From Candidatus Omnitrophota bacterium (GTDB taxonomy: Bacteria > Omnitrophota > Gorgyraeia > Zapsychrales > JAKLDJ01): a stretch of 64,000 bases of DNA. The number at the start of each line of letters is the position of its first letter. Position 1 is the first letter of the stretch. The DNA lies in NCBI GenBank assembly GCA_022703585.1, contig JAKLDJ010000001.1, positions 54,891-118,890 on the forward strand, read 5' to 3'. Of the stretch, positions 18,453 through 51,424 are shown in pieces. The notes under the pieces were generated by a model. It was given only the letters and a program-made list of their open reading frames with translations. It did not search any database and was not told where the DNA came from. A program made the position numbers and the translations under genes.

Positions 18453-21197
18453 CTAATAAGACGGTACCCTCCTCATGGGCTTCTTATCCTTTTTCTTCAT
18501 CTCCACACCTAGCCCAAGGGGCTTCTCAAAGATCCACTCGTCCACATCTTCCTGAATCGGCCTGTAAACATTTTTCAGTACCTTGGAATTAACCGCAGCT
18601 GACTTTTCCTGTGAAGCAGCCACCACGGGTATATTCGTTCCGTTAATAGCACCGACGATGAATTGGGCAAATATCGGACCTATCGTCCGGTTCGCAAGGC
18701 TGTTCGGATGCCCGTCCGCCGTTGTATGGGAAAGTTCGTATTCATACTTAATGTAATTAAAGTTTTGAGAGCCGGCATTGCTATCCGTGATATATCCCCT
18801 GAAATCAAAAACGGAGATATTGGCATGCGGCCCGTTTTCGGTTAAGAAATCCGTCTTCAGCCATTCTGAAAACTCCGTCGCTCTTGCGGCCTGGTCTGGA
18901 TAGCCTGTTAACCGATGCCGTGGCGGCAAGGTCCAGATGATAAATTTCTTAGCAGGGTATTGATCCATTAAATTCCTTAAGCCGCGGTACTGCGTCTTAT
19001 AATTCTCAAGAGACTGGACGCTGGAATTTATATTGGGGTTGCCCGTATCCGCGACGACGCCGGACGCCGGAAAACAATGCTTGAAGATGATGACGTCATA
19101 GTTTTGCGTCAAATCATCCAGACAAGGAGCCCCGTATCTGGAATCCCTGCATTTTTGATTACCCCATAAATCCCAATAGTGAAAAGGATAATTGACTCCG
19201 CCGTAAATACTGCCGCTGGCGGGGAACCATAAATCGGAAACCTGGTAGCCGGTACCGTTGGTCGAATTATAATTGCTAATCCACCCGGCAACTCCTCCTC
19301 CGCTATAATTGTAGAGATTCCCTCCTGTAGAATGATGCAAAAAGATTATTTTTTGATTACCAGCTGGTACAGGAGGCAAAACAAGGCCGTAATTTGCAAA
19401 GCAGGCTGCCCGGTCATTTTGATCCTTGCGCTGAGCCATTATGACAATATCCGTTAAATTGATACGTCCGTCATGGTTCAAGTCAAAGATGCCCGGAAAA
19501 TTAGTCTGCCCGTTCGCCGCTGAACTGTAGTAGTCCTGGATGCCTTTAAAAAGACCATTGCACCAGTCGACATTCAAATAGTTAGACTGGTCATAGGCAT
19601 TGGTAAACTGCGCCTGGCAAGTCGTGTCATCCCCTGCATTGTACATGGTCATCAGCAGAGAATTGTCTTGCGCATCCGCAATGTTATCGTTATTAATATC
19701 CGCGACGGCATTGTACTGCCCGGCGCTTAAAGCCGAATCAACAATTCCCGAGAGGGCGCTGCACCAAGGATTGAAGGACGCGGGAAGAGAGACTTCTTGC
19801 GGCGTTACAGCCTGGGCCTCGCTCGAATGAGCTGAAACGTTACCGGCGGCATCGTACGCCACCACGGTATAATAATAGGCCGTGTTCGCTGTAAGCTCCG
19901 TATTCTGATAAGTATTCGTATTGACATTAGCAATTTGGGCATACGGCCCTCCTGCCGTTACGCTCCGTAAAACATTATAGCCAACAACGCCCACATTATC
20001 CGTCGACGGGCTCCAGAAAAGATTGATTTGCGATGACGATACGGGGCTGGCGATAAGATTGGCCGGTGCCAAGGGAGCTATCGTATCCGCGGGAGGCGGA
20101 TTACCAGAACCTCCAAAGGTGACCGGAAAGCCCTGTTGGTTGGCCTGCTCATTCTCGTTAACAACGTAGAGATACTTCGGGGTGCCACTTGCCAGGGCCC
20201 CCTGCTTGACCATAATCTGAAGAGAATTATTATTCCATGCGCTGGGAATTTGCATCTCGCAATTGCCTCGCGCGTTCCACGCGGAACCCTCGCACACTTC
20301 CACCCGTGCCGCCGTGGTGTCGATATAAACATCGCTAACCCAGAAATTAGCCGGGCAACCGCTCGTCGTGCAGTTGTCCCGCGCATAATATCCGTTCAAA
20401 AAAACATTGGTCCACAGAGGTGCTGACGCCGTTCGGTTTTGGACCAAATCATTCATCTGGCTTGCCTTAAGCTCGCCGTCCAGCCAGCGATAATAATAGG
20501 CATTCGCAACACCTATCTCATCATTGGCCTTAAAGAAGTATTGGTAATGATGCCAAGCGCCCGGCATAAGAGCATAACCATTGGTATAGTTATTATGAAT
20601 GCTGCGATTGTCGTAATCTGCAAAATAACTATGCCCGCTACCGTTGATGGGATACATGTCATGCCGGAATTCTGCATAGTTACCAGGAACGCCCCAGTCT
20701 CCGGCCCCGCCCTGCCTGAGCGACATGAGCTTGAAATTCCGGCTTTTATCCTGGGCGGTCGGGTCAATCTCGGCATACATATGAAACGACACAAAATACT
20801 TTGTGCTGCCCGAAGGGTTATACAGCCCGAAATTACAATTGTACTGATTAGGGGTCGTATAATCCTGCTTGACAGAAACTAAACTTAGGCCTCTCGGCTT
20901 TTCATCAGAATAGAGCGGATAATCGCCCGCGCGCCTCTCGGTGTACCAGCCGTTACCGACTCTTTGACCGATAACGCCGCTCTCGAAACCATCCCACTTT
21001 AACGGTTCGGCCGGATTCTTTACCCCAAAACCGGAACCAGTGATGACAACGGAAGCATTCTGGACAAAAGATCCTGCCGCACTAGTGATTTGAGGAGCAG
21101 CAGTTTGGGCGTAGACACCCTGCTGAGGGAGAATGAATACCAAGGAAAGAATACTAAAAATAATAGCGGTATTAAACCATCGCTCCGTGGCTTTCAT
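18453..21197 (-). CDS. Large secreted protein (914 aa) with a fibronectin type III domain and dockerin-like Ca-binding repeats
   Basis: Signal peptide. FN3-like segment (PLAPANLIASPVSSSQINLFWSPS...YYYTVVAYDAAGNVS). Two D-x-N/D-x-D repeat pairs (DINNDNIADAQD, DLNHDGRINLTD). Large uncharacterised N- and C-terminal domains. Confidence 0.65.
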   Translation of the reverse strand: MKATERWFNTAIIFSILSLVFILPQQGVYAQTAAPQITSAAGSFVQNASVVITGSGFGVKNPAEPLKWDGFESGVIGQRVGNGWYTERRAGDYPLYSDEKPRGLSLVSVKQDYTTPNQYNCNFGLYNPSGSTKYFVSFHMYAEIDPTAQDKSRNFKLMSLRQGGAGDWGVPGNYAEFRHDMYPINGSGHSYFADYDNRSIHNNYTNGYALMPGAWHHYQYFFKANDEIGVANAYYYRWLDGELKASQMNDLVQNRTASAPLWTNVFLNGYYARDNCTTSGCPANFWVSDVYIDTTAARVEVCEGSAWNARGNCEMQIPSAWNNNSLQIMVKQGALASGTPKYLYVVNENEQANQQGFPVTFGGSGNPPPADTIAPLAPANLIASPVSSSQINLFWSPSTDNVGVVGYNVLRSVTAGGPYAQIANVNTNTYQNTELTANTAYYYTVVAYDAAGNVSAHSSEAQAVTPQEVSLPASFNPWCSALSGIVDSALSAGQYNAVADINNDNIADAQDNSLLMTMYNAGDDTTCQAQFTNAYDQSNYLNVDWCNGLFKGIQDYYSSAANGQTNFPGIFDLNHDGRINLTDIVIMAQRKDQNDRAACFANYGLVLPPVPAGNQKIIFLHHSTGGNLYNYSGGGVAGWISNYNSTNGTGYQVSDLWFPASGSIYGGVNYPFHYWDLWGNQKCRDSRYGAPCLDDLTQNYDVIIFKHCFPASGVVADTGNPNINSSVQSLENYKTQYRGLRNLMDQYPAKKFIIWTLPPRHRLTGYPDQAARATEFSEWLKTDFLTENGPHANISVFDFRGYITDSNAGSQNFNYIKYEYELSHTTADGHPNSLANRTIGPIFAQFIVGAINGTNIPVVAASQEKSAAVNSKVLKNVYRPIQEDVDEWIFEKPLGLGVEMKKKDKKPMRRVPSY

Positions 21198-21273: not shown

Positions 21274-24213
21274 TTAGCGTGACGGCAATGGATCATTATT
21301 TACCGTTGTTAACAATACCCGCGCATCCACAGCGGGCAAGATCAAATTCTGAATTGTTGCCCCGGAATTCGCCACATGATCCTGGACGCCATTGATCAAT
21401 CTAAATTCCTGGCCCAAATCAATGGTAGCCGGCGGCGTGCCGTAATAATTGTTATTCAAAATAACGATCCCGTGCTGAAAATCCCGCCGCCAGATATTCG
21501 GCTGCACCTGATAGGGCTCGCCTACCGGATCGCCGAGATAGCCCCTGCCGATACTGCCATTCGTGGTCGGAACCCCGGCCTGCCAGTCAACCCAGAACTC
21601 ATCATACCAGAGCATGTGCCTGTACCCGATAGCCCCGTCGGTAGGAGTAGGCATATGATAGACACCCCCTAGCAGGCTGGCAACCAAACCGTAGCGAGAA
21701 TAACGATAATTAGCCTGATTTGTGAGAAATATATTCCAGTTCATGTGTGGCGTTTTACTATGCATTTGCCAGTACAAAAAACTATTATCGTTGCTTGGAT
21801 TTAAGAACGTGTCTAAATTCCAAACACCATTACGATGAAGCATAGACTCCCACATCTTTCCGTTATAGAGACCGTGGTGCATATCTGCATTATTACCGAC
21901 GACTAAAACATCCTGCCCCAATTTAGCCCTCGTTAATTCCATTAATCTTTGCAGGCCGTTGCCCCACAGAGACCTGACCTCGGCAAAAACGCCAGAGTCA
22001 TTGAGATCTTCATCGACCCCGTCTAAATCATAATCCATAGGCTGGGTAAATGTATGATGGGCATAATCATATAAGAACCAGAAGGTGGTGTCCGGCCCAT
22101 CATAGCCAATACCATCCCAATCCCCTTTGGCAATCGCATTTTTTTCCAAGTGATCCGTCAATGCTTCCGAAAAGGGTACGGCGGGATTAAGGTTATAATT
22201 CAACTGATTCGGGTAATACAGGTTAATGGCGTATTCCCCCGCGACATTGTGCAAACGCCAGCTGTCTTGCAACTGTTCCGCCAAATCCGCACTCGCGATG
22301 TCGCTGACACCATAAAGCGTATTGGATAACGCATACTGGTACATCACCAATAAGATATTGGGATTGGCCTCCCTAATCTGACGCAAGACCAAAGACCGGT
22401 TAAGATTATTATTGCTCGGCAATACGTAGTCATACCGGGCAATATCGCTGGCTTCCGTCGGAGCTATGACGTTACCCGTGAAATATAAAGCAAGTTTCGG
22501 ATAATTATTATTGACCGGGGGCAAAACACGTAAACGACGATACCAAGCATAATCATCGCCATTGTCACTGGCTCGGCATTTGATATAAAAATCATAGGAA
22601 GGAATCGTACTCCCGACCGGCTGTTGGATCGTGTGCGTAAAGCCATCGCTCGTCCGGACCTTTCGGGGTAAATGCGCGTAGACATCGGCCTCGCTGCCAT
22701 AGGCACAATGCATCGAGGATTCCGTGGTAAAACTAAGCTCGATACTATCTGTGTTCGCAATCACATAGCCATCGGGTCTCGTGACATTTATCTTGGGCCT
22801 CTGGACCAAAGCCCCATCCTCAAAAACCCTCGCATTCCTAGTAACCGCCACCTCAAGAACATCCCCCGCACTCTTTGGGCCGGCATAATAGAGATCATTC
22901 GGAGAAAACGGAACCCCTCGGATATAGTTCTCCCTGATCTCCTCACTGCTGAGTGCCTTGTTCAGGATCCTGAATTCATCCACCACGGCATTCGCATTAC
23001 CGATGACCAGATTGCCGTTCGCCGGGGCAAAATTAAAATCGTTAAAATGATTCTGGGAGATCTTAAAACCGTTTAGATAAAGACTGGACTTGTTCTCAGT
23101 CTTGGAATACGTCATGGACAGCAGCATAGGTTTATTGATCGGCACATTGTTATGCATCGTATTGATCTGGACAGCACCCCCCCAGGTCGGATCCACAAAA
23201 CCTTTGTGAACCGTAAATAAAAGGATCCCTTCGGCCGTTTTGATATTCATCATAAACAATTCGCCGGTTACCGGGTTTCGATACCGAAATATGTAAGGAT
23301 CACCCGTATTGGCATCATAAACACTGCTGGTGAGAGGCTGTCTGAGAGTTAGCCAAAGTTCAACCGTCCCTTCATCAAAATCTAAATTATCGTTAACGGC
23401 ATACTGGGCCTTGCCGCTCATGCCCGTTCCAAATTTTCCCGGCTCAAAATTAATATTCTCCGCTGCCACCTCGCACTCGCCGTCAGCCGTGTTCAAATTG
23501 CCGTCAAAATGAGCCAAAAATGTGGTAGAGGTTGTACCCGATTCGACCGGAACGCCGTTTAACCTCCATTCATAAGGAACTCCTGCGGGCAGAAAAGTCT
23601 GCGCGAGCACGATTTTATCTTCATAGGGTTTCTGAAGCGCTAAGATGAGAGTAGACATGATACCGCCTGGAATCACGACAGGTTCTACCGTTGGTTCTAG
23701 GGGTAAATCGTCAACGGATCCAAGATTGAGAGACGTAAGATCGGGTGTTTCTTCGAATATGGGGTCGCCGGAGGGTATTGGTTCGGCATTAACAGTTATC
23801 GGTTCTGCATCGATAGGCGCTGGTTGGACATCAACAGGTATTGGGTCTATGTCGAGAAGAGGAGCAACGTACGGCTGGCTTATGCCGTCAGAATAATCTT
23901 TTGCATCACCCGTATAAATTTTTTCTTCCGCAGAAGAAACCAGATCATGGCTTTGGGAATTCGGCGATCCGGACGCAAAATTGCCTGCAAAAGAACCGTC
24001 CCGGCGAGCGCCGTTGACAAACCCATAGTTATAACTCCTGCGGAGAAACGATTCCGAAGACGATGATTTGTGTGACTTTAAATGACGCGACTTGACTAAT
24101 TCGGAGCCCCCATTCTGAGCAAAAGTATTATCTTGCAATACAGTCAAAATAAAGACGGCGGTGAGACCCAAACCGAAACGCAGAAAATGATGGAATGTAT
24201 AATATCTTTTCAT
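21274..24213 (-). CDS. Large secreted protein (979 aa) with a LamG/concanavalin-like domain and a C-terminal glycoside-hydrolase-like domain (family uncertain)
   Basis: Signal peptide. LamG-like block (GTVELWL...VDEFRILNKALSSEEI). Trp/Tyr/Asp-rich C-terminal region typical of carbohydrate-active TIM-barrel folds. RBS AGGAGGG. Confidence 0.65.
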   Translation of the reverse strand: MKRYYTFHHFLRFGLGLTAVFILTVLQDNTFAQNGGSELVKSRHLKSHKSSSSESFLRRSYNYGFVNGARRDGSFAGNFASGSPNSQSHDLVSSAEEKIYTGDAKDYSDGISQPYVAPLLDIDPIPVDVQPAPIDAEPITVNAEPIPSGDPIFEETPDLTSLNLGSVDDLPLEPTVEPVVIPGGIMSTLILALQKPYEDKIVLAQTFLPAGVPYEWRLNGVPVESGTTSTTFLAHFDGNLNTADGECEVAAENINFEPGKFGTGMSGKAQYAVNDNLDFDEGTVELWLTLRQPLTSSVYDANTGDPYIFRYRNPVTGELFMMNIKTAEGILLFTVHKGFVDPTWGGAVQINTMHNNVPINKPMLLSMTYSKTENKSSLYLNGFKISQNHFNDFNFAPANGNLVIGNANAVVDEFRILNKALSSEEIRENYIRGVPFSPNDLYYAGPKSAGDVLEVAVTRNARVFEDGALVQRPKINVTRPDGYVIANTDSIELSFTTESSMHCAYGSEADVYAHLPRKVRTSDGFTHTIQQPVGSTIPSYDFYIKCRASDNGDDYAWYRRLRVLPPVNNNYPKLALYFTGNVIAPTEASDIARYDYVLPSNNNLNRSLVLRQIREANPNILLVMYQYALSNTLYGVSDIASADLAEQLQDSWRLHNVAGEYAINLYYPNQLNYNLNPAVPFSEALTDHLEKNAIAKGDWDGIGYDGPDTTFWFLYDYAHHTFTQPMDYDLDGVDEDLNDSGVFAEVRSLWGNGLQRLMELTRAKLGQDVLVVGNNADMHHGLYNGKMWESMLHRNGVWNLDTFLNPSNDNSFLYWQMHSKTPHMNWNIFLTNQANYRYSRYGLVASLLGGVYHMPTPTDGAIGYRHMLWYDEFWVDWQAGVPTTNGSIGRGYLGDPVGEPYQVQPNIWRRDFQHGIVILNNNYYGTPPATIDLGQEFRLINGVQDHVANSGATIQNLILPAVDARVLLTTVNNDPLPSR

Positions 24214-24263
24214 GTCTTTACCCTCCTAAGAAATTGGGGAGGGCCTTTATTAAGAAAGGCCTA

Positions 24264-24390
24264 TTCCCGGTTACCAAATAAAAAGAGGAATAAGCCGTGA
24301 GCCATTTGTTATTTTGATTCGGCAGTCAGGCTATCCTCTTTTTTAAGGACCCTCTAACTTTGCGCACCGCCCTTACGGACAGATTGCCTT
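24264..24390 (-). promoter_or_regulatory. Candidate c-di-GMP-I (GEMM)-like riboswitch with intrinsic terminator, in the leader of the 979-aa gene
   Basis: Sense strand: aaggcaatctgtccGTAAgggcggtGCGCAAAGttag...ctgactgccgaatc, then terminator hairpin agaggatagcc...ggcttattcctct plus ttttatttgg. Closely parallels the 49342-49492 element (ggcaaactattcGTAAggataGGACGCAAAGC...ctggctgccgaatc). Confidence 0.5.
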
Positions 24391-24765
24391 TATCGTCAAA
24401 ACATGATTTCTTTAATTATCTATTTAAAAGTATAGCACTGATTTAGGGGGAAACAAGGCAGGGAGACATGCTACCGGGAAGCGTTTTCCTGGAGAGATCA
24501 TCTTTGAATATTTAACCTTCGATGACAAGCGTCAAGAGTCAAGATTACACCTGAAAACACAGAGCAATAAATTGAATTATTTTAAGTTACTGCTGGATAG
24601 ATAGCAAAGACCTCGCAATCGGGCTGAAAAAACAATCCGATCAATTCGGAACATCTGACCCCTATTACTGATAAAGATTCTCCGCTAACAACAAGGGAAC
24701 AGCCGGGAAGGTTACGGCAGGAAATTATTTTGTTCCTAAGGCTGACGCGAATGAATTCTGCGCCG

Positions 24766-27178: not shown

Positions 27179-27243
27179 TCGGGGAGCCGGGATTTGAACC
27201 CGGGACCTCTTGCTCCCAAAGCAAGCACGCTAGCCAACTGCAC
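27179..27243 (-). pseudogene. Partial tRNA-Pro(TGG) copy (D-arm through 3' end) lacking a matching 5' acceptor strand
   Basis: The 3' ~65 nt fold well: anticodon loop ttTGGga, T-loop ttcaaat, acceptor 3' ctccccg. The required 5' cggggag is absent, replaced by a 50-nt hairpin (gcacctgactt...aagtcaggtgc). Confidence 0.5.
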
Positions 27244-27446
27244 CTGACTTCCTCTAAACTTAAAGAACTTCTATTGAGAAAAGTCAGGTGCTGCCCCAAC
27301 TTTCCACTAATCCTGTTTAGAAGAAGTTGGGACTGCACCGGCTTCTTCTAAAATAGAATCTTAAGGATGGCCGGGCTGCACTTGTTTCTTCTGAACGTAG
27401 ATCTTTTTATTCTAAGGAAAACAAGTGCTGCACCATCCTAAAAAAG

Positions 27447-27521
27447 TCGGGGCGGACAGATTTGAACTGTCGACCTTCTGCTCCCAAAGCAGACGCGCTA
27501 GCCAAGCTGCGCTACGCCCCG
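27447..27521 (-). tRNA. tRNA-Pro (TGG)
   Basis: Acceptor cggggcg/cgccccg, D-arm gcgcagcttggctagcgc, anticodon loop ttTGGga, T-arm gacagttcaaatctgtc. No encoded CCA. Confidence 0.85.
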
Positions 27522-42175: not shown

Positions 42176-42712
42176 TTAGGAAGGAATGAGTATCTTGCTT
42201 AGGGTCAGGCGGCACTTAATTTGGGCCGTGCGTATAGAGCTTTTTTCGAAATAGACTTCGTCTATGCTAAAGAAATGGGGAGAATTTTGCAGGATATACA
42301 GAAAATGGACAATCGAAACCAGCTCGCCATCCATGGTCAGGCTCACCGAGAAATTATTATAGAAATCTACTCTTTTAACCTTTTTGGGTTTCATGTCGGC
42401 CACGCCCAGCTTGATTTCATTGGCAACCGACTGTATCTCGGAAAGGATCGATGCCATCTCCTGCTCATCAGAAAGTTTTTGCCGCAAAGAAAAAATCTGC
42501 TGTTCATATGCCTTGCTGACACTGTCCTTCCTCTTATTAATCTTCAAAATCTTCTTTAGCTGAGTCTCCTTGGCTTCGATTTTCTCTTCTAGGGCAGCCA
42601 AGTCTTCCTTAAGCGGCTTAAAAATAAACCGATAGCTGACAAAAACAAAGATAACAAACAGGCAAACAATAAAAATGCGCGTTTCTCTTTTGGAAAGGCG
42701 TCGTGGAATCAT
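42176..42712 (-). CDS. PilO/GspM-like pilus assembly protein
   Basis: N-terminal TM, coiled coil (LAALEEKIEAKETQLKKIL), C-terminal ferredoxin-like region. 4-bp overlap with upstream gene. Confidence 0.5.
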   Translation of the reverse strand: MIPRRLSKRETRIFIVCLFVIFVFVSYRFIFKPLKEDLAALEEKIEAKETQLKKILKINKRKDSVSKAYEQQIFSLRQKLSDEQEMASILSEIQSVANEIKLGVADMKPKKVKRVDFYNNFSVSLTMDGELVSIVHFLYILQNSPHFFSIDEVYFEKSSIRTAQIKCRLTLSKILIPS

Positions 42713-44223
42713 GGCGTTTCTTCCTTTGCCTTGACAAGATGACAGGTGATCTTAAAATCTGTCAGCTCGCCTTTAAAAATCTTCCTTTTAGTGGCATATT
42801 GCAAAGTTACGTTTCCAAACAGAGAAGAATTAACCAGCCGCCTCTGCAGGGCATTAACACCACTACCGGTTTCGGAGGTACCCTGAAGGTCAAGCGTTCC
42901 GTCTTCTCCCAGGTGCACCATGCTGAAAGAAATCTCCGCCGGTGCCAGATTATATAATTCATAAATAATATCAATACCGGTCGCAACGGGATTAAATCGT
43001 TCTTTGATAAAATTAAGACGCCTTACCTTTTCCTTTACCTCGCGGACAGCCGGCTCTGCCTCGCTGATTTTTCCCTGGAGTTGCTGAAGATACATGGAAT
43101 TCTTATAAATTTTAACCGCGATCGTACCCATGAACAGAAGAACGACTCCGACCAGAAGAATAATGAGCCTGGACCATTCCTGCCTTCTTTTCCTGTTTTC
43201 CCTGGTGCTGCTGACTTCTGAGGGAATCAGATTAACGAGGCCTTCGGGTTTTTCTAAGACCAGCCCCAGCCCCACCGCCAGCGACACACCGGCCTGCTCC
43301 AAGGCAATCGGTTTTTTAAAACTCTTTTTTTGCGGAATATTTGTTAGCGGGTTAAGTGTTTCGGGATTAACCGCATACAGACGCCGCCCTCTTTCGGCCT
43401 CGGTATTATCCCCGGACTCAGCGCCGGAAGCCAAAGCCTTATTCTCCGCTTCCATCCTTTCGCGTAAAATTGCGATCTGTGAGAGCGAAGAGACCAGAAG
43501 CCCCCGGGAAATATTTTCTCCGATATTTTCCTTAACGTAAGTAGCCACAGTGAGGTTGATCTCTTCGATGAGGTTGGCAATGCCTGCCTCGTTTAAATCC
43601 CTAGCCCCGAAATTAATACTCCGGGAAAATAATAGTTTTCGATTATGACAAAAACAAATTTCCGTATTCAGCGTATCAACATTGATAACCACGGCGGGAG
43701 AGGTATCTTTCTGCCTTAACCGCGACTGCTGAAAGACAAACCAACGCATCAACCCCACCGAACTTAAAGTCAGCCGTTGGATCGGCAGGCCGGCATCATT
43801 AAAGATCTTTAAATACCTGCCGACTACTTCCTTGTGGATCGCGAAGACCAGGACCTTGGAATAACCCGTCGATTCTTTGGCTAAAACGGCATGGTCGAGG
43901 ATAACGTCCTCCCGGGGATACGGCACCTGCTTGATAATCTGCAGGTTGATCATCTTTCTTATTTCTTCATCCGCATGAGAAGGAAGCGTCAGATGCCGGA
44001 GAATGGCAAAACGCCTGGGGATAATACCGATAAGATTTGAGGCGCGGACCTTGCCATTAGCAGCCATCACAGCGATCGTCCTAGAAACTTCAGCGTCGGA
44101 ATACTGCACAATTTCCCTAACGTCACAATAGGTCAAAACCGCGCCGCCGTGAGACACCATTGCCTGCACAAGCTTGATATGGGTATCCGTAATTTCAACG
44201 CTGGTTAAAAGATTTTTTCCCAT
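42709..44223 (-). CDS. Fused PilM (actin-like ATPase) - PilN pilus assembly protein
   Basis: N-terminal PilM-like ~350 aa, internal TM (LIILLVGVVLLFMGTIAV), C-terminal PilN-like segment. Confidence 0.7.
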   Translation of the reverse strand: MGKNLLTSVEITDTHIKLVQAMVSHGGAVLTYCDVREIVQYSDAEVSRTIAVMAANGKVRASNLIGIIPRRFAILRHLTLPSHADEEIRKMINLQIIKQVPYPREDVILDHAVLAKESTGYSKVLVFAIHKEVVGRYLKIFNDAGLPIQRLTLSSVGLMRWFVFQQSRLRQKDTSPAVVINVDTLNTEICFCHNRKLLFSRSINFGARDLNEAGIANLIEEINLTVATYVKENIGENISRGLLVSSLSQIAILRERMEAENKALASGAESGDNTEAERGRRLYAVNPETLNPLTNIPQKKSFKKPIALEQAGVSLAVGLGLVLEKPEGLVNLIPSEVSSTRENRKRRQEWSRLIILLVGVVLLFMGTIAVKIYKNSMYLQQLQGKISEAEPAVREVKEKVRRLNFIKERFNPVATGIDIIYELYNLAPAEISFSMVHLGEDGTLDLQGTSETGSGVNALQRRLVNSSLFGNVTLQYATKRKIFKGELTDFKITCHLVKAKEETP

Positions 44224-44227
44224 CAGT

Positions 44228-45304
44228 CTATTCTTTCTGCCAGAAAACTATTGATAAATCATTCCTGTCAATAACAGCTTCCAAGACAGAATCAATCCCC
44301 AGGCCCTCATCTTTACCTACCGCACGGACACGCAAATAATTGGAGACATCGGTTACACTACCTGACAATGAAAGGAATATCGCCATTTCTTTTTGATTAA
44401 GGCCTAATTCATTCGCGATAATCTTCCGGTCATCCGAGGTGTATTCTTGGCCGTCTTCTCCTCGCCGGTAAGAAATAATCTTAGCTGCCATGCTGTCGGC
44501 ATCGGACAACTCCGTGTTGGTCTGAAACCCTGCCTTACTGCGCGCCAATGCCCGGATAACAATTTCGGGAGCCGTATTCATATTAATCATCAATCGCGAA
44601 TCATCCTGAGGAAAAACCGTCACGTAATTCTTAACTTTTGAATATATCTCCGGAGTCATCCCCTTAAGCAAGAGAAGTTCCTCCGGACTTTCAAAAAAGA
44701 AATTCTTGCATCGATAAGAATACTCGGATTCTTCGGTCGCGGACGGCGCATTAGTCGCGGCGGCATCGCTATCCCGCCAGTCGACGGCGGCCATGGCGAT
44801 TGTTTCAGCCAGGACATCCTCAAACCCCAGAACAGAAATCAAAGAGCTCAAAACATTATAATTCTGCCGCGACAGGGCATTGATATTAATTCTGCCTTCT
44901 TCATCCCGCAGGCCGTAATGGGTTTTTTTTAGACCCGTCAGCGGGTCTTGAGTAACAAAGCTGACGTCAAAACGGCCATCGCCCAACCGGACTTCCTTAA
45001 AGATATCTTCCGGCACCTGCCCTTCCTCTAATGTGATACCACAAAGATACGCGGTGTCGAGGCCGGCCGCGGCACTATCCTCGCTGTCCTTTTTAATCTG
45101 GTCAATCGCGTACATCAAACCCGCCCAGGCAAGGTTTGAGGCCCTGGATTGGCCGACGGCAAATTTTGTCAAAGCCAAGTCAATACTGGTCCGCCGTCCC
45201 AGGCCGACCGCCAGAAAAGACAGAATAACCATCATCCATAATACAACCAGAAGTATTATACCAGAATCATTCCTCGTTCTAAATCTCGGTAAACAATATT
45301 TCAT
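44228..45304 (-). CDS. Minor pseudopilin GspK-like
   Basis: N-terminal SGIILLVVLWMMVILSFLAV hydrophobic segment typical of GspK. 358 aa. Confidence 0.6.
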   Translation of the reverse strand: MKYCLPRFRTRNDSGIILLVVLWMMVILSFLAVGLGRRTSIDLALTKFAVGQSRASNLAWAGLMYAIDQIKKDSEDSAAAGLDTAYLCGITLEEGQVPEDIFKEVRLGDGRFDVSFVTQDPLTGLKKTHYGLRDEEGRININALSRQNYNVLSSLISVLGFEDVLAETIAMAAVDWRDSDAAATNAPSATEESEYSYRCKNFFFESPEELLLLKGMTPEIYSKVKNYVTVFPQDDSRLMINMNTAPEIVIRALARSKAGFQTNTELSDADSMAAKIISYRRGEDGQEYTSDDRKIIANELGLNQKEMAIFLSLSGSVTDVSNYLRVRAVGKDEGLGIDSVLEAVIDRNDLSIVFWQKE

Positions 45305-45307
45305 ATC

Positions 45308-46030
45308 TTAAAGATTTTCTTCCGTTAGGTATCCTGACGGAATATAAACATCTTTAGTAAAAACGATAGGCTGCTTTACCTTGCCCGGTTTTATGAAGGT
45401 CGCTTTGATCCGCACCCCCGAAGGAGTGTACGGCTTTTCCCACGAATCCTTCCAGGTAATCTTCTCGTCTTCCTCCTGCCCTTCGAGGTAAGCAAAAGAA
45501 AAACTTAAACTCCCCTCTTGAATATGAGGGCTTAAAATATCCTTTTCGACTTTTGCCTGCGCATTATCGGTTAAGTAATCGGTAAACAGTTTTTCTTCGC
45601 GGACCAGTGAATACAAAACAAATTTTTCCTCGTAGCGAACGGTCAAGGAACGGTTTTTGTTCGTGTGGCCGCCGATAACAACTTTGTGCACCGTCGTCTG
45701 GTCGGGTAATTCAAGATAATAGCTGATAACCTTAAGGCCCGTATCCGTTGCGGATACGAAGGAAATTTTATCCGAATTTCCGGAGAATGCGGTTAGCTTA
45801 GGGTAAGAATTGGCAAAATTAAAAGCGCGCATGCGCTCTAAATCTCCCGCTATCTGATCCAGGGCCCAGCGAGCCTCGCGGTAAATGCCGTTGACATCAT
45901 CCGACCGGCGGCTTAATCGTAGCGCGCTATCCAACGTCCCATACAGGCTTACGGCAATGATAGAAAAAATGCTCAAACCCAGAAGCACTTCGATCAGCGT
46001 GAAGCCTTTAAAAGAATATTTTGATCGCAT
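45308..46030 (-). CDS. Minor pseudopilin GspJ-like (prepilin-type N-terminus)
   Basis: Likely start MRSKYSFKG|FTLIEVLLGLSIF, a class III signal with Gly-1 and Glu+5. Confidence 0.6.
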   Translation of the reverse strand: MRSKYSFKGFTLIEVLLGLSIFSIIAVSLYGTLDSALRLSRRSDDVNGIYREARWALDQIAGDLERMRAFNFANSYPKLTAFSGNSDKISFVSATDTGLKVISYYLELPDQTTVHKVVIGGHTNKNRSLTVRYEEKFVLYSLVREEKLFTDYLTDNAQAKVEKDILSPHIQEGSLSFSFAYLEGQEEDEKITWKDSWEKPYTPSGVRIKATFIKPGKVKQPIVFTKDVYIPSGYLTEENL

Positions 46031-46074
46031 ACGTATTTCTTTCCAGGACGGTTTGCCGTTTTTCGACCACATTT

Positions 46075-46485
46075 CTATGCCGGCGGCTGAAGAAGATAGG
46101 TCACCGCAGAAATAGACCGCTCCTTGGGGCCCGAACGCCAAAAGACAGTCAATTTAACCTCATTCAACAATCCTGACGTCGATTCGCTAACGACTTTCTT
46201 TGTTTCCAATCGATAGAAAAACTTTTCATACGGCTCGGGAAAAATATCCTCTATATCAATAGAATCTTTGATAAAACCTTTTTGTCTTAAATCGGACATT
46301 TCATTTCCTAATAAAATCACGGCCATGGAGTAATCGGCGCTATACGCCGTCGCCTTCAGGCTGGACACCAGGGAGCGGATAACAACCGTCAACCCGATCG
46401 AAAGGATAGAAATCGTCAGCAAGGCCTCGACTAAAAGCGAGCCTTTTTTACTCAATTTTGCCTTCAAATATTTGAACATAGCCAA
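46075..46485 (-). CDS. Minor pseudopilin GspI-like
   Basis: KKGSLLVEALLTISILSIGL prepilin-type N-terminus. Confidence 0.6.
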   Translation of the reverse strand: MAMFKYLKAKLSKKGSLLVEALLTISILSIGLTVVIRSLVSSLKATAYSADYSMAVILLGNEMSDLRQKGFIKDSIDIEDIFPEPYEKFFYRLETKKVVSESTSGLLNEVKLTVFWRSGPKERSISAVTYLLQPPA

Positions 46486-47080
46486 ATTGGTCCTGGGTTG
46501 AAACGGTAAAATAGCTATCGCGATTATCGCGCAGGTAGAGCCGAACCTTTTCTATCTTCCCGTCGGGATAAAATAGGATAGCCGGCTTATCTGCTTCCAT
46601 CTTAATCCCTTCAGGGATAGAGAGCGGCTGCCCCATCTTCCCTGAGATCGGCTGAAAGCTAACCTCCTCATCCCCTTGGTCCGAGCCAAGATCTACTTCC
46701 TGCGTCAGCCGGCATTGATTGTGCACAGCGTCAAGCTCAAGGCGATGCAGATTTTTTTTGACAATGGCCCTTCCTTGGGCATACCGCATCAAGAAGGCAA
46801 CGTTCTTTGTCGCCTCCGATAGCTGAAGATTAGAATAAAGCTGACTGAAATTGGGAACGGCGAGACCGGCAACGACGCCTAAGAGTAAAACCACCAGCAG
46901 GATTTCGACAAGAGTAAACCCGGTTAGAAAACTTCGTTCTTCTACCCTGTTAGAAAACGAATCTTTTCTAATGAGGCTAAAATCGGCGGCTTTCTCCAAC
47001 GGGGTAAATGATTTGTGATGAGCAAGGCAATGGAAAGCTCCGGGAGAGATTCGTCTTTGGATATTTCCTTCTTTTTTCAT
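46448..47080 (-). CDS. Minor pseudopilin GspH-like with unusually long N-terminal leader
   Basis: ATG at 47080 forms an ATGA overlap with the gspG stop. Prepilin motif G|FTLVEILLVVLLLG follows a ~58-aa leader. No in-frame ATG closer to the motif. Confidence 0.5.
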   Translation of the reverse strand: MKKEGNIQRRISPGAFHCLAHHKSFTPLEKAADFSLIRKDSFSNRVEERSFLTGFTLVEILLVVLLLGVVAGLAVPNFSQLYSNLQLSEATKNVAFLMRYAQGRAIVKKNLHRLELDAVHNQCRLTQEVDLGSDQGDEEVSFQPISGKMGQPLSIPEGIKMEADKPAILFYPDGKIEKVRLYLRDNRDSYFTVSTQDQFGYVQIFEGKIE

Positions 47081-47529
47081 TGCCCATCCGGCGTTTTGGC
47101 CTCTTCCCAATTTGTGACATCGTCTCCTGCGCCCTCTGCACCATCCCGGCCGTAAGAAGACAGGTCATACGATTCGACATTATGGCTGCCCGGGGAGATA
47201 TACGCATAATCCTTACCCCACGGATCCTTGGGAATTCTTTTTTTCTTTAAATACGGGCCACTCCAGTTTTCCGGAACAGGCGAGGCGGTAGGTGCCTCAA
47301 CTAAGGCTGCCAGCCCCTGCTCCGTGGTCGGATAGCGGCCGTTGTCCAATTCGTATAAATCCAGCGCCGTCCCTAAATTGGTTTCAATATCGGCCTTAGC
47401 GGCCATGCGCCTGGCTTGTTCCCCCCGGCCGGCTAAGTTCGGGACAACCATCGCCACCAAAACACCGATAATAATAACGACAAGCATGATTTCAACCAGC
47501 GTAAAACCTTTTATTTGCTTGGTCTTCAT
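47077..47529 (-). CDS. gspG: Type II secretion major pseudopilin GspG
   Basis: MKTKQIKG|FTLVEIMLVVIIIGVLVAMVVPNL, the GspG signature. 150 aa. Confidence 0.85.
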   Translation of the reverse strand: MKTKQIKGFTLVEIMLVVIIIGVLVAMVVPNLAGRGEQARRMAAKADIETNLGTALDLYELDNGRYPTTEQGLAALVEAPTASPVPENWSGPYLKKKRIPKDPWGKDYAYISPGSHNVESYDLSSYGRDGAEGAGDDVTNWEEAKTPDGQ

Positions 47530-47566
47530 TGACTGACCTCCTTAAAAGTTATTAGAATTCCCAATC

Positions 47567-48826
47567 CTATCGTATCATGAGATTCATCTTAAAGATCGGC
47601 AGCAGCATGGCAACCACGATAAAGGCCACAACCGAGCCGACCACGATAATCATCACCGGCTCCAGAAGAGAAGTCACCGTCTTAACCATCCGGTCGGATT
47701 CCCTTTCATAAGCATCGGCGATCTTGTATAAGGCCTGCTCCAGGTGCCCGGATTCCTCCCCTACCATCACCATATTAACGGCTGTTTCGGGAAAATATTT
47801 ACATTTCTTAAGCGCCGCTGTCAGGCTGTCGCCGCCGGCAACGTCTGCCGACAGCTTCTTGACTTCTCCTTTTAAGGCCTCGTTATCCAGAACCGCCCAG
47901 ACCGAATCCAAAGCCGAGACAATGACCACCCCGCCGTCTAAAAGGGTCCCCAGGCTTCTGGCTAAACGTCCCATTTCCGAATCCCTTATAAAACTTCCCA
48001 CCAAGGGAATCTTTAATTTAAGAGTATCCCATTTTAATTTGCCTGAAGGTGAACTGCAAAATCTTTTAAAATAAAAAAACAGCAGGTAGGCAAGGCCAAA
48101 GACCAGCCACCAAAAACGGCTTAGGAAATTACTGACCGCCATCAAAATAAGAGTCAGTAACGGCAGCGTCTCGGATAGGTCTTCAAACATCACCGTGATG
48201 CGAGGAATGACAAAGGTCAGTAAAACAAAAATCGTAATAACACCCACAATAAAAATAAGAGCCGGGTAAGCTAAGCTGGAACGTATTTTGCTTCGTGTCT
48301 CGAGGTCTTTCTCGGAAAAATCCGCCAGGCGATTCAAGACGGTATCCAGGTTGCCGCTGATTTCCCCGGCACGAACCATGTTCACGTACAACGGCGAAAA
48401 AACCTGCGGATGCCGGCTTAGGGCCTGAGAAAATGTACCGCCGTCCTGCACGAAGGTTTCTATCTGATGAATCATTTCCTTAAAATGAGGATTTTTCCCT
48501 TGATTCGATATGATGCGTAGTGCCCTCAGCAGAGGCACGCCCGCCCCCACCAGATCGGCGACCTGCCGGGTAAACAATCCGACCTCCGCAGGGTTAACAA
48601 AACTGTGAAAACTCAAGAAGGCGAAAGAAGGCAGTTTGGGCTTAGGGGGAAGTTTTACTTCTTTGGCAGTCGCAAGCGAAATATCAATCGGAACGTATCC
48701 GAGTTTTGTTATTTTATCGAGGGCGCTGTCCAGATTTTCTGCCTCGATAGTACCGTCGAGAATATCGACGGGGCCTTTCTTGGCCTTATAAATAAAAAGG
48801 GGCATATTTGATGGTGATTTTAACAC
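47567..48826 (-). CDS. gspF: Type II secretion / type IV pilus platform protein (GspF/PilC family)
   Basis: Two T2SSF repeats and three TM segments. 419 aa. Confidence 0.9.
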   Translation of the reverse strand: MLKSPSNMPLFIYKAKKGPVDILDGTIEAENLDSALDKITKLGYVPIDISLATAKEVKLPPKPKLPSFAFLSFHSFVNPAEVGLFTRQVADLVGAGVPLLRALRIISNQGKNPHFKEMIHQIETFVQDGGTFSQALSRHPQVFSPLYVNMVRAGEISGNLDTVLNRLADFSEKDLETRSKIRSSLAYPALIFIVGVITIFVLLTFVIPRITVMFEDLSETLPLLTLILMAVSNFLSRFWWLVFGLAYLLFFYFKRFCSSPSGKLKWDTLKLKIPLVGSFIRDSEMGRLARSLGTLLDGGVVIVSALDSVWAVLDNEALKGEVKKLSADVAGGDSLTAALKKCKYFPETAVNMVMVGEESGHLEQALYKIADAYERESDRMVKTVTSLLEPVMIIVVGSVVAFIVVAMLLPIFKMNLMIR

Positions 48827-48970
48827 ACCCCCGAACCTATTTCAAGGCAAAGCTACGGATGATGCATGAGAATAGAGTTAAAACAATGATTTGCGTAAGA
48901 ATAACTTTGGGTGATTTTAAGAAGAGGCCTCGAGGGACATTCAAATCATACCACTGGAGGGAAATTGTTT

Positions 48971-49324
48971 TTATTTGTAGGCGATTGTCTTTTTGACATA
49001 CTGCGAAGACTGGAGCACAAAAACTTTATCGCCCAGAACAACATACTGGCTGCCAACAACCTTGTAGAGAACTTTGTCTTTGCGCTGGCGGGTGTTTCGG
49101 TTACGGATAATAAAAGTCTGGGGAGGGGCGCCTTCCTTTTTCTTCTGATTAAGGAAAAGCTCCAGGTCAAAGGGATCAGTAAACTCCAGGATTTCTTTAA
49201 CCGCATAGACGGTCTTTTTCTCGAGCTCCTGGACCGCACCCGTATTCTCCATAAGCTCTGAAGAAAAAAGCTCTGTCCTTTTTTTGTCCTTAGAAACACT
49301 GTTGCGGAATAACAATTCGTGCAT
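48971..49324 (-). CDS. Hypothetical 117-aa protein, first gene downstream of the riboswitch
   Basis: GGAGGA RBS 5 nt before ATG. No recognised domain. Confidence 0.5.
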   Translation of the reverse strand: MHELLFRNSVSKDKKRTELFSSELMENTGAVQELEKKTVYAVKEILEFTDPFDLELFLNQKKKEGAPPQTFIIRNRNTRQRKDKVLYKVVGSQYVVLGDKVFVLQSSQYVKKTIAYK

Positions 49325-49341: not shown

Positions 49342-49492
49342 AAAAAAACCTATCCGCAAAAATACTTAAGGATAGGTTTTAAAAACCCTGCGCCTAGATT
49401 CGGCAGCCAGACTGTCCCACACCCGGCTGGTGAGGTGTGGGATTCTTAGCTTTGCGTCCTATCCTTACGAATAGTTTGCCTTTTCGTCTAAC
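49342..49492 (-). promoter_or_regulatory. c-di-GMP-I (GEMM) type riboswitch aptamer plus intrinsic terminator
   Basis: Sense strand: ...gacgaaaaGGCAAACtattcGTAAggataGGACGCAAAGCtaag...cccacacc/ggtgtggg hairpin...ctggctgccgaatc. Matches the GEMM consensus (GCAAAC, GNRA loop, GGACGCAAAGC). Followed by cctatcc...ggatagg hairpin plus T7 and then the RBS. Confidence 0.65.
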
Positions 49493-49723: not shown

Positions 49724-51424
49724 CTATACCGCCTCTTCCTGAGTTACCCGCATAACCTCGCCGGGTGTGGTAATTCCATTCTTTATTTTTTCCCAGCCGT
49801 CCTGGCGTAATGTCCTCATTCCTGCCTGGATGGCCTTATTCTTGATTTGCTGGGCCGTGGCACGATTTAGAATCATATCTCGGATCTCTTCATTTAAGAC
49901 CAGAAATTCATAAATCCCCTCACGGCCCCGATACCCTGTAAATTTACAAGCCTCACACCCTTTGCCTTCATAAAATACAATTTGAGAAACTTCTTGTTCG
50001 TTAAGCCCAAAGTCTTTGGCCATATCAACCGCTGCCTTGACAGGCTGTTTGCATCGCGGGCATATAATACGCACTAGTCTCTGAGCGATAAAACATTCCA
50101 CCGAACTCGAGACAAGATACGGCTCCACCCCCATATCGATAAGCCTCACCACACCGCTGGCGGCATCGTTGGTATGCAGTGTCGAAAAAACCAGATGCCC
50201 GGTCAGGGCAACTTGAATAGCGATCTCTGCCGTTTCAAAATCCCTGACCTCTCCCACCATCATGATGTCGGGATCGTGCCGCAGCATGGAGCGCAATCCG
50301 GCTGCAAAAGTAAGGCCGATACGCGGGTTAATTTGAATTTGCGTTACCCCGCCTAACTGATATTCAATGGGGTCTTCAATGGTAATGATCTTCCGGTCGA
50401 CTTTATTTACCCGTGAAAGACAGGCATACAGTGTCGTCGTCTTACCGCTGCCGGTAGGGCCGGTAACAAAAACGACTCCGTGTGGTTTCTTAATAAGCAT
50501 ATCAAGAATATTCAAATCACGCCTGGACAATCCCAGCTCTTCAAAGCTGTAAAGCTTTGCGGCGCTTAGAATCCTGATTACCACGCTCTCGCCGTAAACC
50601 GTAGGAAGAAAGGAGATCCTTAAATCAAGATCAATATCCCCGACTCTAACCTTAAAACGTCCGTCCTGGGGAAGGCGTTTCTCAGCGATGTTTAAGTTCG
50701 CCATAATTTTAATGCGCGAATTAATTGAATCCTTAAAATGCTTAATCGTGGGCGGGACTTTAGCATCATATAAAATACCGTCAATCCGGTAGCGGATTTT
50801 TAATTCGTCCTCAAAAGGCTCAATATGAATATCCGTTGCCCTGTCTTTGTAAGCCTCTAGGAGGATCTGGTTGACAAATTTACCGATGGAAGCCTCGGAA
50901 TCTATTTCCTCAATATCCTCGACGCGCATCTCCTCTTTTGTGCGCACCCCCACCGTATCCATCATCTTCTCAATTGTTTCGGCTCCAACCCCATAGTATT
51001 TGCGCACGGCCTCCATGATATCTTTTTCGCTGGCCAAAACGGACTTGAGTCTTGATTTAACCACCAAACCGATATCATCCAGGACATGGATATCCAGCGG
51101 CCTGGTTAAAGCGACGGTCAAGGTTTCATTTTTGTAGTCAATGGGCATAATGCGATAATGATAGGCAAATTTGGCAGGGATTTTATTGATAGCCTCGGGG
51201 GGCACACGGACTTCCTTAAGATTGACAAACTCAACACCCAGCTGCTCCGCCAGGATCGGCAGATAGACCGTCTCTTCGTTTACAAGCCCCAGACGCAACA
51301 GCGTAATCCCCAGCATCTCTCCGGTCTTCTGCTGTTCTTTAAGGGCGGTTTGCAATTGCTGCTCGGTAATAACTTTCTTATCAACCAACAATTGGCCTAA
51401 GAAACTTTTGGATTTCGTTTTCAT
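49724..51424 (-). CDS. gspE: Type II secretion / type IV pilus assembly ATPase (GspE/PilB family)
   Basis: N-terminal T2SSE_N domain, Walker A GPTGSGKTTT, Asp/His boxes, C-terminal tetracysteine CPRC...CEAC. Confidence 0.9.
   Translation of the reverse strand: MKTKSKSFLGQLLVDKKVITEQQLQTALKEQQKTGEMLGITLLRLGLVNEETVYLPILAEQLGVEFVNLKEVRVPPEAINKIPAKFAYHYRIMPIDYKNETLTVALTRPLDIHVLDDIGLVVKSRLKSVLASEKDIMEAVRKYYGVGAETIEKMMDTVGVRTKEEMRVEDIEEIDSEASIGKFVNQILLEAYKDRATDIHIEPFEDELKIRYRIDGILYDAKVPPTIKHFKDSINSRIKIMANLNIAEKRLPQDGRFKVRVGDIDLDLRISFLPTVYGESVVIRILSAAKLYSFEELGLSRRDLNILDMLIKKPHGVVFVTGPTGSGKTTTLYACLSRVNKVDRKIITIEDPIEYQLGGVTQIQINPRIGLTFAAGLRSMLRHDPDIMMVGEVRDFETAEIAIQVALTGHLVFSTLHTNDAASGVVRLIDMGVEPYLVSSSVECFIAQRLVRIICPRCKQPVKAAVDMAKDFGLNEQEVSQIVFYEGKGCEACKFTGYRGREGIYEFLVLNEEIRDMILNRATAQQIKNKAIQAGMRTLRQDGWEKIKNGITTPGEVMRVTQEEAV

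Follow-up and report, generated by a model that had tools for sequence, protein, structure and literature searches.

When one aptamer precedes both a terminator-like hairpin and a Shine-Dalgarno (SD) sequence that has its own complement in the leader, it is necessary to ask which of the two the ligand controls, and in which direction. This question is raised by a locus in a 64-kb stretch of DNA from a Candidatus Omnitrophota bacterium (assembly GCA_022703585.1; the whole stretch is called the window here). An RNA element lies on its minus strand, which is also the strand of the downstream gene, in the 5′ untranslated region (5′ UTR) and 100 nt 5′ of the AUG of the gene at 21274–24213, which encodes a protein of 979 amino acids. 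A first-pass annotation, made from the sequence alone, had described this element as a diverged GEMM-like riboswitch, followed by a terminator-like hairpin and by an extra hairpin over the ribosome-binding site (RBS). Our analysis indicates that the element is almost certainly a genuine class-I riboswitch aptamer for cyclic di-GMP (c-di-GMP). It is an ordinary member of a well-known family, and its long leader seems to be built to switch both termination and ribosome access.

Identity and architecture of the aptamer

The whole window was scanned with the 4227 families of Rfam 15 at their gathering thresholds. The c-di-GMP-I model (RF01051) matched positions 24318–24398 of the minus strand with 55.4 bits, against a gathering score of 35 (E 4.1e-8), over model positions 1–87 of 87, which bears out the GEMM-like assignment. 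A second member of the same clan was returned at 49398–49489 of the minus strand (the 49.4-kb copy). The two aptamers are related, as had been proposed. The focal copy is not especially diverged: its score lies 20 bits above the curated threshold, and its ligand contacts are the canonical G, A, and C. The aptamer was present in the interval assigned to it but extends further 5′, to 24398 in the Rfam match and to 24399 with P1. Its parts are as follows.

24314–24399, minus strand: c-di-GMP-I aptamer including P1, from the RF01051 match and the RF03167 alignment
24367–24382, minus strand: hairpin P1a, CUGUCC-GUAA-GGGCGG, with a GYRA-type GNRA tetraloop, from the Rfam alignment and covariation
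24324–24359, minus strand: hairpin P2 (P1b), with an A-rich loop, from the Rfam alignment

The core of the aptamer, AAAGGCAAUCUGUCCGUAAGGGCGGUGCGCAAAGUUAG...CUGACUGCCGAAUC, occupies 24390–24316. The P1 stem is formed by UUGACG (24399–24394) and CG-AA-UCAA (24321–24314), the two hairpins are joined by an AAA linker (GC-AAA-G, 24363–24358), and P2 reads AGUUAGAGGGUCCUU-AAAAAA-GAGGAUAGCCUGACU. The consensus fold has an energy of −19.9 kcal/mol, and every conserved position is intact. In the alignment to the Rfam consensus, the ligand contacts are G24388 (equivalent to G20), A24361 (A47), and C24322 (C92), in Vc2 numbering. The spacing from G to A is 27 nt, as in Vc2. The same spacing separates G11 and A38 of the Bc1 riboswitch (PMC11218506). 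The columns of the 11-nt tetraloop receptor are deleted for the focal RNA in the Rfam alignment. A receptor is almost never present with a GYRA loop (Weinberg 2007, PMC1950547), and its absence is therefore expected here, where the loop is GUAA. Judged by its ligand-contact residues, the RNA is predicted to bind c-di-GMP.

The helices of the aptamer were also examined in an alignment of 18 sequences, consisting of both copies in the window, a third copy outside it (L128), 13 loci from metagenome-assembled genomes (MAGs) of Omnitrophota, and two unlabelled metagenome contigs (L129 and L130). When the focal structure was laid over this alignment, 82% of the cells were paired, compared with 73% in column shuffles, and none of 500 shuffles scored as high. 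Double changes occurred at 16 pairs, and P1a was 98% paired, with compensatory changes in five of its six pairs. This covariation supports the aptamer helices.

Two variants that share the clan and the overall fold were considered and rejected. With more permissive filters, the model of the c-di-GMP-I-GGC variant (RF03167) gave 56.1 bits, which is below its gathering score of 59; this is slightly higher than the RF01051 score because the P1 stem is included in the RF03167 model alone. At the variant-defining position, equivalent to A47, the focal RNA has A rather than G (GACGCGAA, compared with UGCGCAAA in the RF03167 consensus). The GEMM-Ib type, which recognizes 3′3′-cyclic GMP-AMP (cGAMP), reportedly has A at the G20 equivalent, according to the work on Geobacter GEMM-Ib RNAs, and the focal RNA has G24388 there. 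The canonical G/A/C contacts thus make the element neither a GGC variant nor a cGAMP type.

Compared with the Vc2 and Vc1 type of Vibrio cholerae, the focal element shares P1, a GNRA-capped P1a, the AAA linker, P2, the G20/A47/C92 contacts, and a position in the 5′ UTR before a gene for a secreted or surface protein. It differs in its GUAA (GYRA) loop without the 11-nt receptor, which is a known subclass, in its host, an Omnitrophota MAG, and in its expression platform of about 105 nt, which has extra alternative helices that reach the SD.

Four predicted, mutually exclusive helices from the aptamer to the Shine-Dalgarno sequence

Every sequence string quoted in the first-pass annotation was located on the minus strand where it had been placed, including the terminator-like hairpin in which AGAGGAUAGCC (24339–24329) pairs with GGCUUAUUCCUCU (24296–24284) and is followed by UUUUAUUUGG. 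The hairpin exists, but to describe it as following the aptamer, as had been done, is incomplete: its 5′ arm coincides with the aptamer's 3′ half. The two share 24344–24321 and are alternative pairings, as had been anticipated, and the hairpin is thus part of a competing expression platform, an arrangement that is classic for GEMM RNAs. Five strands make up this platform.

24321–24344, minus strand: strand A, AAAAAAGAGGAUAGCCUGACUGCC, the 3′ strand of P2 plus GCC (with the C92 equivalent), also the 5′ arm of helix A:B, from folding
24276–24303, minus strand: strand B, GGCUCACGGCUUAUUCCUCUUUUU (24303–24280), running into the U-run UUUUUAUUU (24284–24276), from folding
24255–24268, minus strand: strand C, GGGAAUAGGCCUUU, from folding and likeness to sister terminators
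24236–24248, minus strand: strand D, AAAGGCCCUCCCC, containing the anti-SD CCCUCC (24243–24238), from folding
24221–24226, minus strand: strand E, the SD GGAGGG, 7 nt before the AUG (24213), from the sequence

Four helices can be drawn among these strands. Helix A:B (designated T1) has an energy of −21.4 kcal/mol and a 17-nt loop, and is followed by UUUUUAUUU (eight U in 9 nt). In B:C, GGCUUAUUCC of strand B (24296–24287) pairs with GGAAUAGGCC of strand C (24267–24258), with an energy of −13.6 kcal/mol, a 19-nt loop, and UUUCUUAAU after it. Helix C:D joins GGGA..GGCCUUU to AAAGGCC.UCCC (−14.5 kcal/mol), and D:E joins the anti-SD to the SD, 11 nt apart (−8.8 kcal/mol). The helices are pairwise exclusive and form a chain. 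The pairing of CCCUCC with GGAGGG, which had been reported as an extra hairpin, therefore exists but is the last link of this chain; it is absent from the unconstrained minimum-energy fold, where it is outcompeted by C:D.

The state of the first link determines that of the last in the folds. In prefix folds, A:B becomes the minimum-energy structure once B has been transcribed (−34.8 kcal/mol, compared with −26.6 kcal/mol for the aptamer fold). When the aptamer was enforced, the probability of B:C was 0.99–1.00 and that of D:E 0.99, and the SD was unpaired with a probability of 0.00. When A:B was enforced, C:D had a probability of 0.93–0.97 and D:E 0.01–0.05, and the SD was unpaired with a probability of 0.24–0.40. 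They hold for folds computed at 20 or 37 °C and for each of three sets of transcript ends. The first-pass annotation had asked whether the RBS hairpin melts on ligand binding; every fold examined predicts that it closes instead, with D:E at 0.99 when the aptamer is formed and 0.02 when it is disrupted. On aptamer formation, the accessibility of the SD falls from 0.44 to 0.002, a change matched by 5 of 400 dinucleotide shuffles of the 87-nt spacer. The ensemble energy was lowest in the ligand-free fold (−58.5 kcal/mol), followed by the ligand-bound fold (−50.6 kcal/mol) and the aptamer combined with C:D (−47.7 kcal/mol). Binding of c-di-GMP at the affinity of Vc2 is worth approximately 12–15 kcal/mol, so the ligand could pay for the gap of approximately 8 kcal/mol between the folds.

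From these folds and by analogy with Bc1, we tentatively favour a relay that is active at two levels, with somewhat less than even confidence. The riboswitch would be transcribed from a promoter 29 nt upstream and would control the gene for the secreted protein and probably the next gene. Without c-di-GMP, strand B would invade the 3′ half of the aptamer, and A:B with UUUUUAUUU would form a terminator-like attenuator; strand C, left free, would hold the anti-SD in C:D and keep the SD accessible. With c-di-GMP bound, the aptamer would retain A and prevent T1, B would pair with C, and D would be released, so that CCCUCC could close the GGAGGG. The ligand would then relieve termination at T1 and at the same time occlude the RBS, i.e., it would act with opposite signs on transcription and translation (incoherent control). 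The stronger statement, that strand exchange from a single aptamer carries the ligand decision about 100 nt to the SD and has opposite effects on read-through and translation initiation, we consider unlikely. On that reading, the full-length mRNA would be made mainly at high c-di-GMP and translated mainly after loss of the ligand, which would amount to a cis-encoded, incoherent response of the falling-edge type for a secreted polysaccharide hydrolase, and the leader may have evolved from an OFF-type ancestor whose antiterminator gained a U-run.

The closest precedent for this switching logic appears to be Bc1 of Bacillus thuringiensis (Liu et al. 2024, PMC11218506). In the absence of ligand, Bc1 has its terminators folded and its RBS and AUG accessible; c-di-GMP leads to unfolding of its T1 and to trapping of the RBS and AUG, and this control of opposite sign was found experimentally (PMC11218506). 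The net response of Bc1 in vivo was flat (PMC11218506). Both RNAs have a long platform with two successive elements of a hairpin and a U-run, although the opposite-sign logic is only predicted for the focal RNA. Bc1 has a GAAA loop with its receptor and two typical terminators 28 bp apart, of which T2 persists regardless of the ligand. In the focal RNA, in contrast, B:C shares a strand with the first hairpin and can form only when A:B does not, and a dedicated anti-SD, CCCUCC, would close the SD. We do not claim sequence homology between the platforms. As a compact natural system, the focal platform is a candidate for a helix relay by which a single aptamer acts on termination as well as on ribosome access, and Bc1 is so far the sole c-di-GMP example of such dual coupling that has been dissected experimentally.

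Three further observations concern pairings in the leader. Helix C:D, which is followed by CAAUUUCUU, was considered as a third terminator and rejected, as the U-rich stretch is offset and poor. A long-range complementarity of 9–10 bp was found on the minus strand between UCAUGUUUU (24408–24400, immediately 5′ of P1) and AAAGACAUGA (24220–24211, spanning the start codon). This pairing occurs in full-length minimum-energy folds, with a probability of up to 0.98 depending on the transcript ends, and would occlude the AUG, but the complementarity may be due to chance. Finally, a weak plus-strand match to the Rfam family Plastid-psbA-4 (24276–24344, 19 bits, E 0.68) is the reverse complement of the A:B hairpin, which can be read on both strands because its stem has an A-run and a U-run.

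Sister riboswitches and the direction of control

Strand B, the 3′ arm of the terminator-like hairpin, has a second partner in C, which resembles the stand-alone terminators of sister riboswitches, and the sequence by itself therefore does not point to a single direction of control. More than 118 loci, with many from Omnitrophota, were returned by a pattern scan of the species representatives in GTDB. The products of their downstream genes are mostly secreted (a TPS-domain exoprotein, NHL-repeat propellers, a transglutaminase-like protein, and small secreted proteins of unknown function), and response regulators follow the riboswitches of L036 and the contig L130. A scan of metagenomes with CGCAAAGTTA-N15-40-AGCCTGACTGCCGAA returned four loci, none of which has the focal platform; the focal locus was missing from the result even though its sequence fits the pattern. 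Approximately 18 relatives were classified by eye and defined hairpins were scored, as an automated classifier gave multibranch artefacts; the score was of the d'Aubenton-Carafa type (d).

Compact stand-alone terminators lie 3′ of the aptamer in the 49.4-kb copy, L128, L066, L013, L031, L036, L047, L055, and L088. These relatives are of the OFF type, because the 5′ arm of the terminator is complementary to an aptamer strand. Seven of them (the 49.4-kb copy, L128, L013, L031, L036, L055, and L088) have terminators of the form CCUAU(U)CC...GGA(A)UAGG followed by a U-run. The terminator of L066 is a stand-alone GCCUAUU...AAUAGGC with a U-run at the equivalent position, and that of L047 has a different stem. 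L054 and both copies of L035 are of the ON type, with a terminator whose 5′ arm lies within the aptamer. The sister riboswitches of Omnitrophota have closely related aptamers (AGCCUGACUGCCGAAUCAA and the linker are common to L066 and the focal RNA), TATACT-type promoters 8–59 nt upstream, and mostly secreted-protein genes downstream. Their terminator motif, GGA(A)UAGG/CCUAU(U)CC, recurs as the focal B:C helix. The sister copies differ from the focal RNA in that their terminators are compact, stand alone, and carry good U-tracts, and in that they have neither an A:B hairpin tailed by a U-run nor an anti-SD. Additional arrangements were seen among these loci: tandem c-di-GMP-I aptamers in other Omnitrophota (L031 and L021, where a pair of aptamers precedes a single gene), an additional aptamer 3′ end a short way upstream in L047, and two consecutive units of a riboswitch and a small-secreted-protein gene in L035, both with ON-type terminators.

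The terminators of the relatives had d-scores from 0 to +38, with the exception of L066, whose score of −11 depends on how the stem is drawn; those of the ON-type relatives were +20 to +37. In the focal leader, B:C scored −23 and has the poorest U-tract among the hairpins compared, and the U-run score nT was 4.6 after A:B and 3.3 after B:C. Neither focal hairpin is strong as a terminator, and A:B is the better of the two. A generic scan for promoters and terminators found sites in numbers equal to the shuffle expectation, and both T1 and B:C fall outside its loop limit of 3–8 nt.

Several points weigh against the two-level relay. T1, with its irregular stem and 17-nt loop, scored −4 to −11, compared with 0 to +38 in the relatives, and the SD is just 24–40% unpaired even in the open fold. 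An exact CCCUCC occurs in 7.4% of dinucleotide shuffles of the 87-nt spacer and is weak evidence alone. Overall, the structure of the leader is unexceptional (z = −1.63; 11 of 200 shuffles fold as well). The energies are those of nearest-neighbour models, in which the ligand, tertiary contacts, and folding kinetics play no part. The closest homologues of the regulated protein (≤57% identity) have no riboswitch and there is no orthologous leader, so the platform helices are modelled and argued by analogy rather than from covariation. In addition, an incoherent design has no obvious benefit, and the response of Bc1 to c-di-GMP in vivo was not measurable (PMC11218506).

The strength of A:B and the ON-type relatives raise the possibility of a plain transcriptional ON switch, in which A:B with its U-run is the sole functional element of the platform, the ligand allows read-through, and B:C, C:D, and D:E are incidental or constitutive; this is in essence the model of the first-pass annotation. 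This is classic GEMM architecture, in which terminators overlapped the 3′ side of P2 in 78 of 322 RNAs (Weinberg 2007, PMC1950547), and it has precedents within the phylum in the two copies of L035 and in L054. A:B is the strongest helix of the leader (−21.4 kcal/mol), forms co-transcriptionally in the prefix folds, and has the better U-run (nT 4.6 compared with 3.3; d −4 compared with −23). By our estimate, chance helices of 9–10 bp are expected in an AU-rich leader of 200 nt, and the overall fold has a z of only −1.63. However, for the state with the aptamer formed, which would be the productive one here, the folds predict a completely paired SD (D:E 0.99, SD unpaired 0.00). So large a coupling to the SD arose in only 5 of 400 shuffles, and T1 is weaker and more irregular than the terminators of the ON-type relatives. 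We regard this reading as rather unlikely, though not to be neglected.

The sister terminators point in the other direction. The focal B:C helix looks like the stand-alone terminators of the sister copies, and GGAAUAGGCC-UUUCUUAAUAAAGG aligns with the 3′ arm and U-tract of the L066 terminator, AAUAGGC-UUUUUUAUUAUAGG. This would suit a coherent OFF switch. There A:B would serve as the antiterminator, with its U-run merely a U-rich loop, and B:C with UUUCUUAAU would be the real terminator in weakened form. The B:C terminator and the anti-SD:SD helix would then repress jointly when the ligand is bound, and A:B and C:D would keep the gene on without it, so that all four helices act in one direction. 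Clear OFF-type relatives do have terminator loops that are long or U-rich, namely UUUUUGA in L031 and one of 14 nt, also U-rich, in the 49.4-kb copy. Against this stand the 19-nt loop, the poor U-tract, and the d-score of −23 of B:C, and the fact that a hairpin of −16 to −21 kcal/mol directly before UUUUUAUUU would be expected to terminate in what is supposed to be the ON state. We judge a coherent OFF switch, too, to be rather unlikely.

That both candidates score below the sister terminators could also mean that the aptamer is functional and the platform decayed or non-responsive, or that it acts via Rho, RNase access, or a protein partner. The homologues of the regulated protein elsewhere have no riboswitch, so the association would be recent and lineage-specific, and the case of Bc1 shows that ligand binding by a c-di-GMP-I riboswitch need not alter expression (PMC11218506). 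However, the aptamer is intact at all conserved positions, the complementarities of the platform are long and nearly perfect, and the gap of approximately 8 kcal/mol, which the ligand could offset, is what a working switch needs. We consider this explanation quite improbable; were the relay non-functional, the locus would be one more instance of GEMM-I. For the net response to c-di-GMP, repression or a flat response seems slightly the better expectation, activation is a lesser possibility, and a complete lack of function is improbable.

Candidate promoter, regulated genes, and the second riboswitch of the window

The following features flank the riboswitch.

24429–24456, minus strand: candidate sigma-70-type promoter, TTGTTT-N16-TGcTATACT, from sequence reading and comparison
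21274–24213, minus strand: gene for a protein of 979 amino acids with a signal-peptide-like N-terminus, a Laminin_G_3 (LamG) domain, and a GHL15 TIM-barrel glycosidase-like domain, from Pfam
18453–21197, minus strand: next gene, 76 nt downstream, for a protein of 914 amino acids with fn3 and a weak dockerin-like match

The candidate promoter has its −35 element (TTGTTT) at 24456–24451, a 16-nt spacer, and an extended −10 element (TGcTATACT) at 24437–24429, and leaves a gap of 29 nt to P1. The promoter scan missed it because its −35 element matches at only three of six positions. The layout of the 49.4-kb copy matches it (TTGTTT-N16-TGtTATATT), and TTGnnn-N16-18-TA(T/C)A(C/T)T occurs 8–59 nt 5′ of the aptamer in 13 of 17 related riboswitch loci. 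This suggests that transcription starts near 24422 and that the 5′ UTR is approximately 210 nt long. The leader of 550 bp that had been assumed is in fact the intergenic distance (552 bp). Further upstream, a terminator-like hairpin at 24650–24636 (d −19) might end the preceding TPR gene, but the scan that yielded it was no richer in sites than shuffles.

The domains and fold matches of the 979-residue protein lead us to predict that it is a secreted enzyme with a TIM barrel, similar to polysaccharide hydrolases. When residues 560–979 were modelled with AlphaFold (pLDDT 74.7), the best fold matches were among the GH168 endo-1,3-fucanases (Foldseek E 2e-15, TM approximately 0.53–0.61); GH66, GH191, and the PelA hydrolase domain were more distant. 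A protein annotated in a Candidatus Omnitrophota MAG has an identical sequence (100%). A sequence search of the PDB and a search of NCBIfam gave no match for the 979-residue protein, the fold search alone pointing to a glycosidase-like domain, and a protein-guided search of GTDB genomes found no relative. Its closest homologues (P0002–P0019) are longer, fn3-rich proteins with 37–57% identity. Their named sources are MAGs of the Patescibacteria group plus one record of “Nanoarchaeum sp.,” and intermediate relatives are absent; the gene may have been transferred horizontally among ultra-small, host-associated lineages. The loci of P0002, P0014, P0006, P0017, P0012, and P0015 were fetched, and an Rfam scan of these six loci (L002, L004, and L006–L009) found no c-di-GMP riboswitch in the leaders. 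The gene for the 914-residue protein is probably co-transcribed with that for the 979-residue protein, because the 76-nt gap between them has no U-run terminator.

The 49.4-kb copy lies within a type II secretion-like cluster (genes at 49724–51424 and 42709–49324). On one side is a gene for a GspE ATPase with an MshEN domain, a known c-di-GMP-binding domain; on the other is an open reading frame (ORF) for 117 amino acids without a family match, followed by gspF, gspG, and pseudopilin-like and gspK/L/M-like genes. Its best Rfam model is RF03167 (60.5 bits, gathering score 59). Nevertheless, it looks like a canonical c-di-GMP-I RNA caught by the variant model, because it has A rather than G at the variant-defining position. 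The 5′ arm of its terminator, CCUAUCC, can pair with the 3′ strand of P1a, GGAUAGG, which would make it OFF-type. The third copy, L128 (JGI Ga0265297_10000002), lies outside the window, probably belongs to the same genome, and precedes a gene for a secreted protein; its terminator is clean (CCUAUUCC...GGAAUAGG+UUUUUAUUUUU).

The small c-di-GMP regulon that had been proposed from two copies is strengthened by the position of the second copy beside GspE-MshEN in the secretion cluster and by L128. A clear c-di-GMP-I riboswitch and at least two sister copies are thereby added to an Omnitrophota genome. The riboswitches connect c-di-GMP with a secreted glycosidase-like enzyme and with a type II secretion cluster, which suggests control of the extracellular toolkit of these very small bacteria by the messenger. 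A regex motif screen, not based on hidden Markov models, found no GGDEF, EAL, HD-GYP, or PilZ domain in the ORFs of the window. In the library that was searched, we found no paper describing a c-di-GMP riboswitch in Omnitrophota; two papers that mention both concern ComFB receptor proteins.

Elsewhere in the window, two genes for tRNA-Pro(TGG) lie approximately 200 nt apart on the minus strand, at 27180–27253 and 27446–27521. The first is diverged, with 37 bits over model positions 9–63 in Rfam, and is called at full length by ARAGORN.

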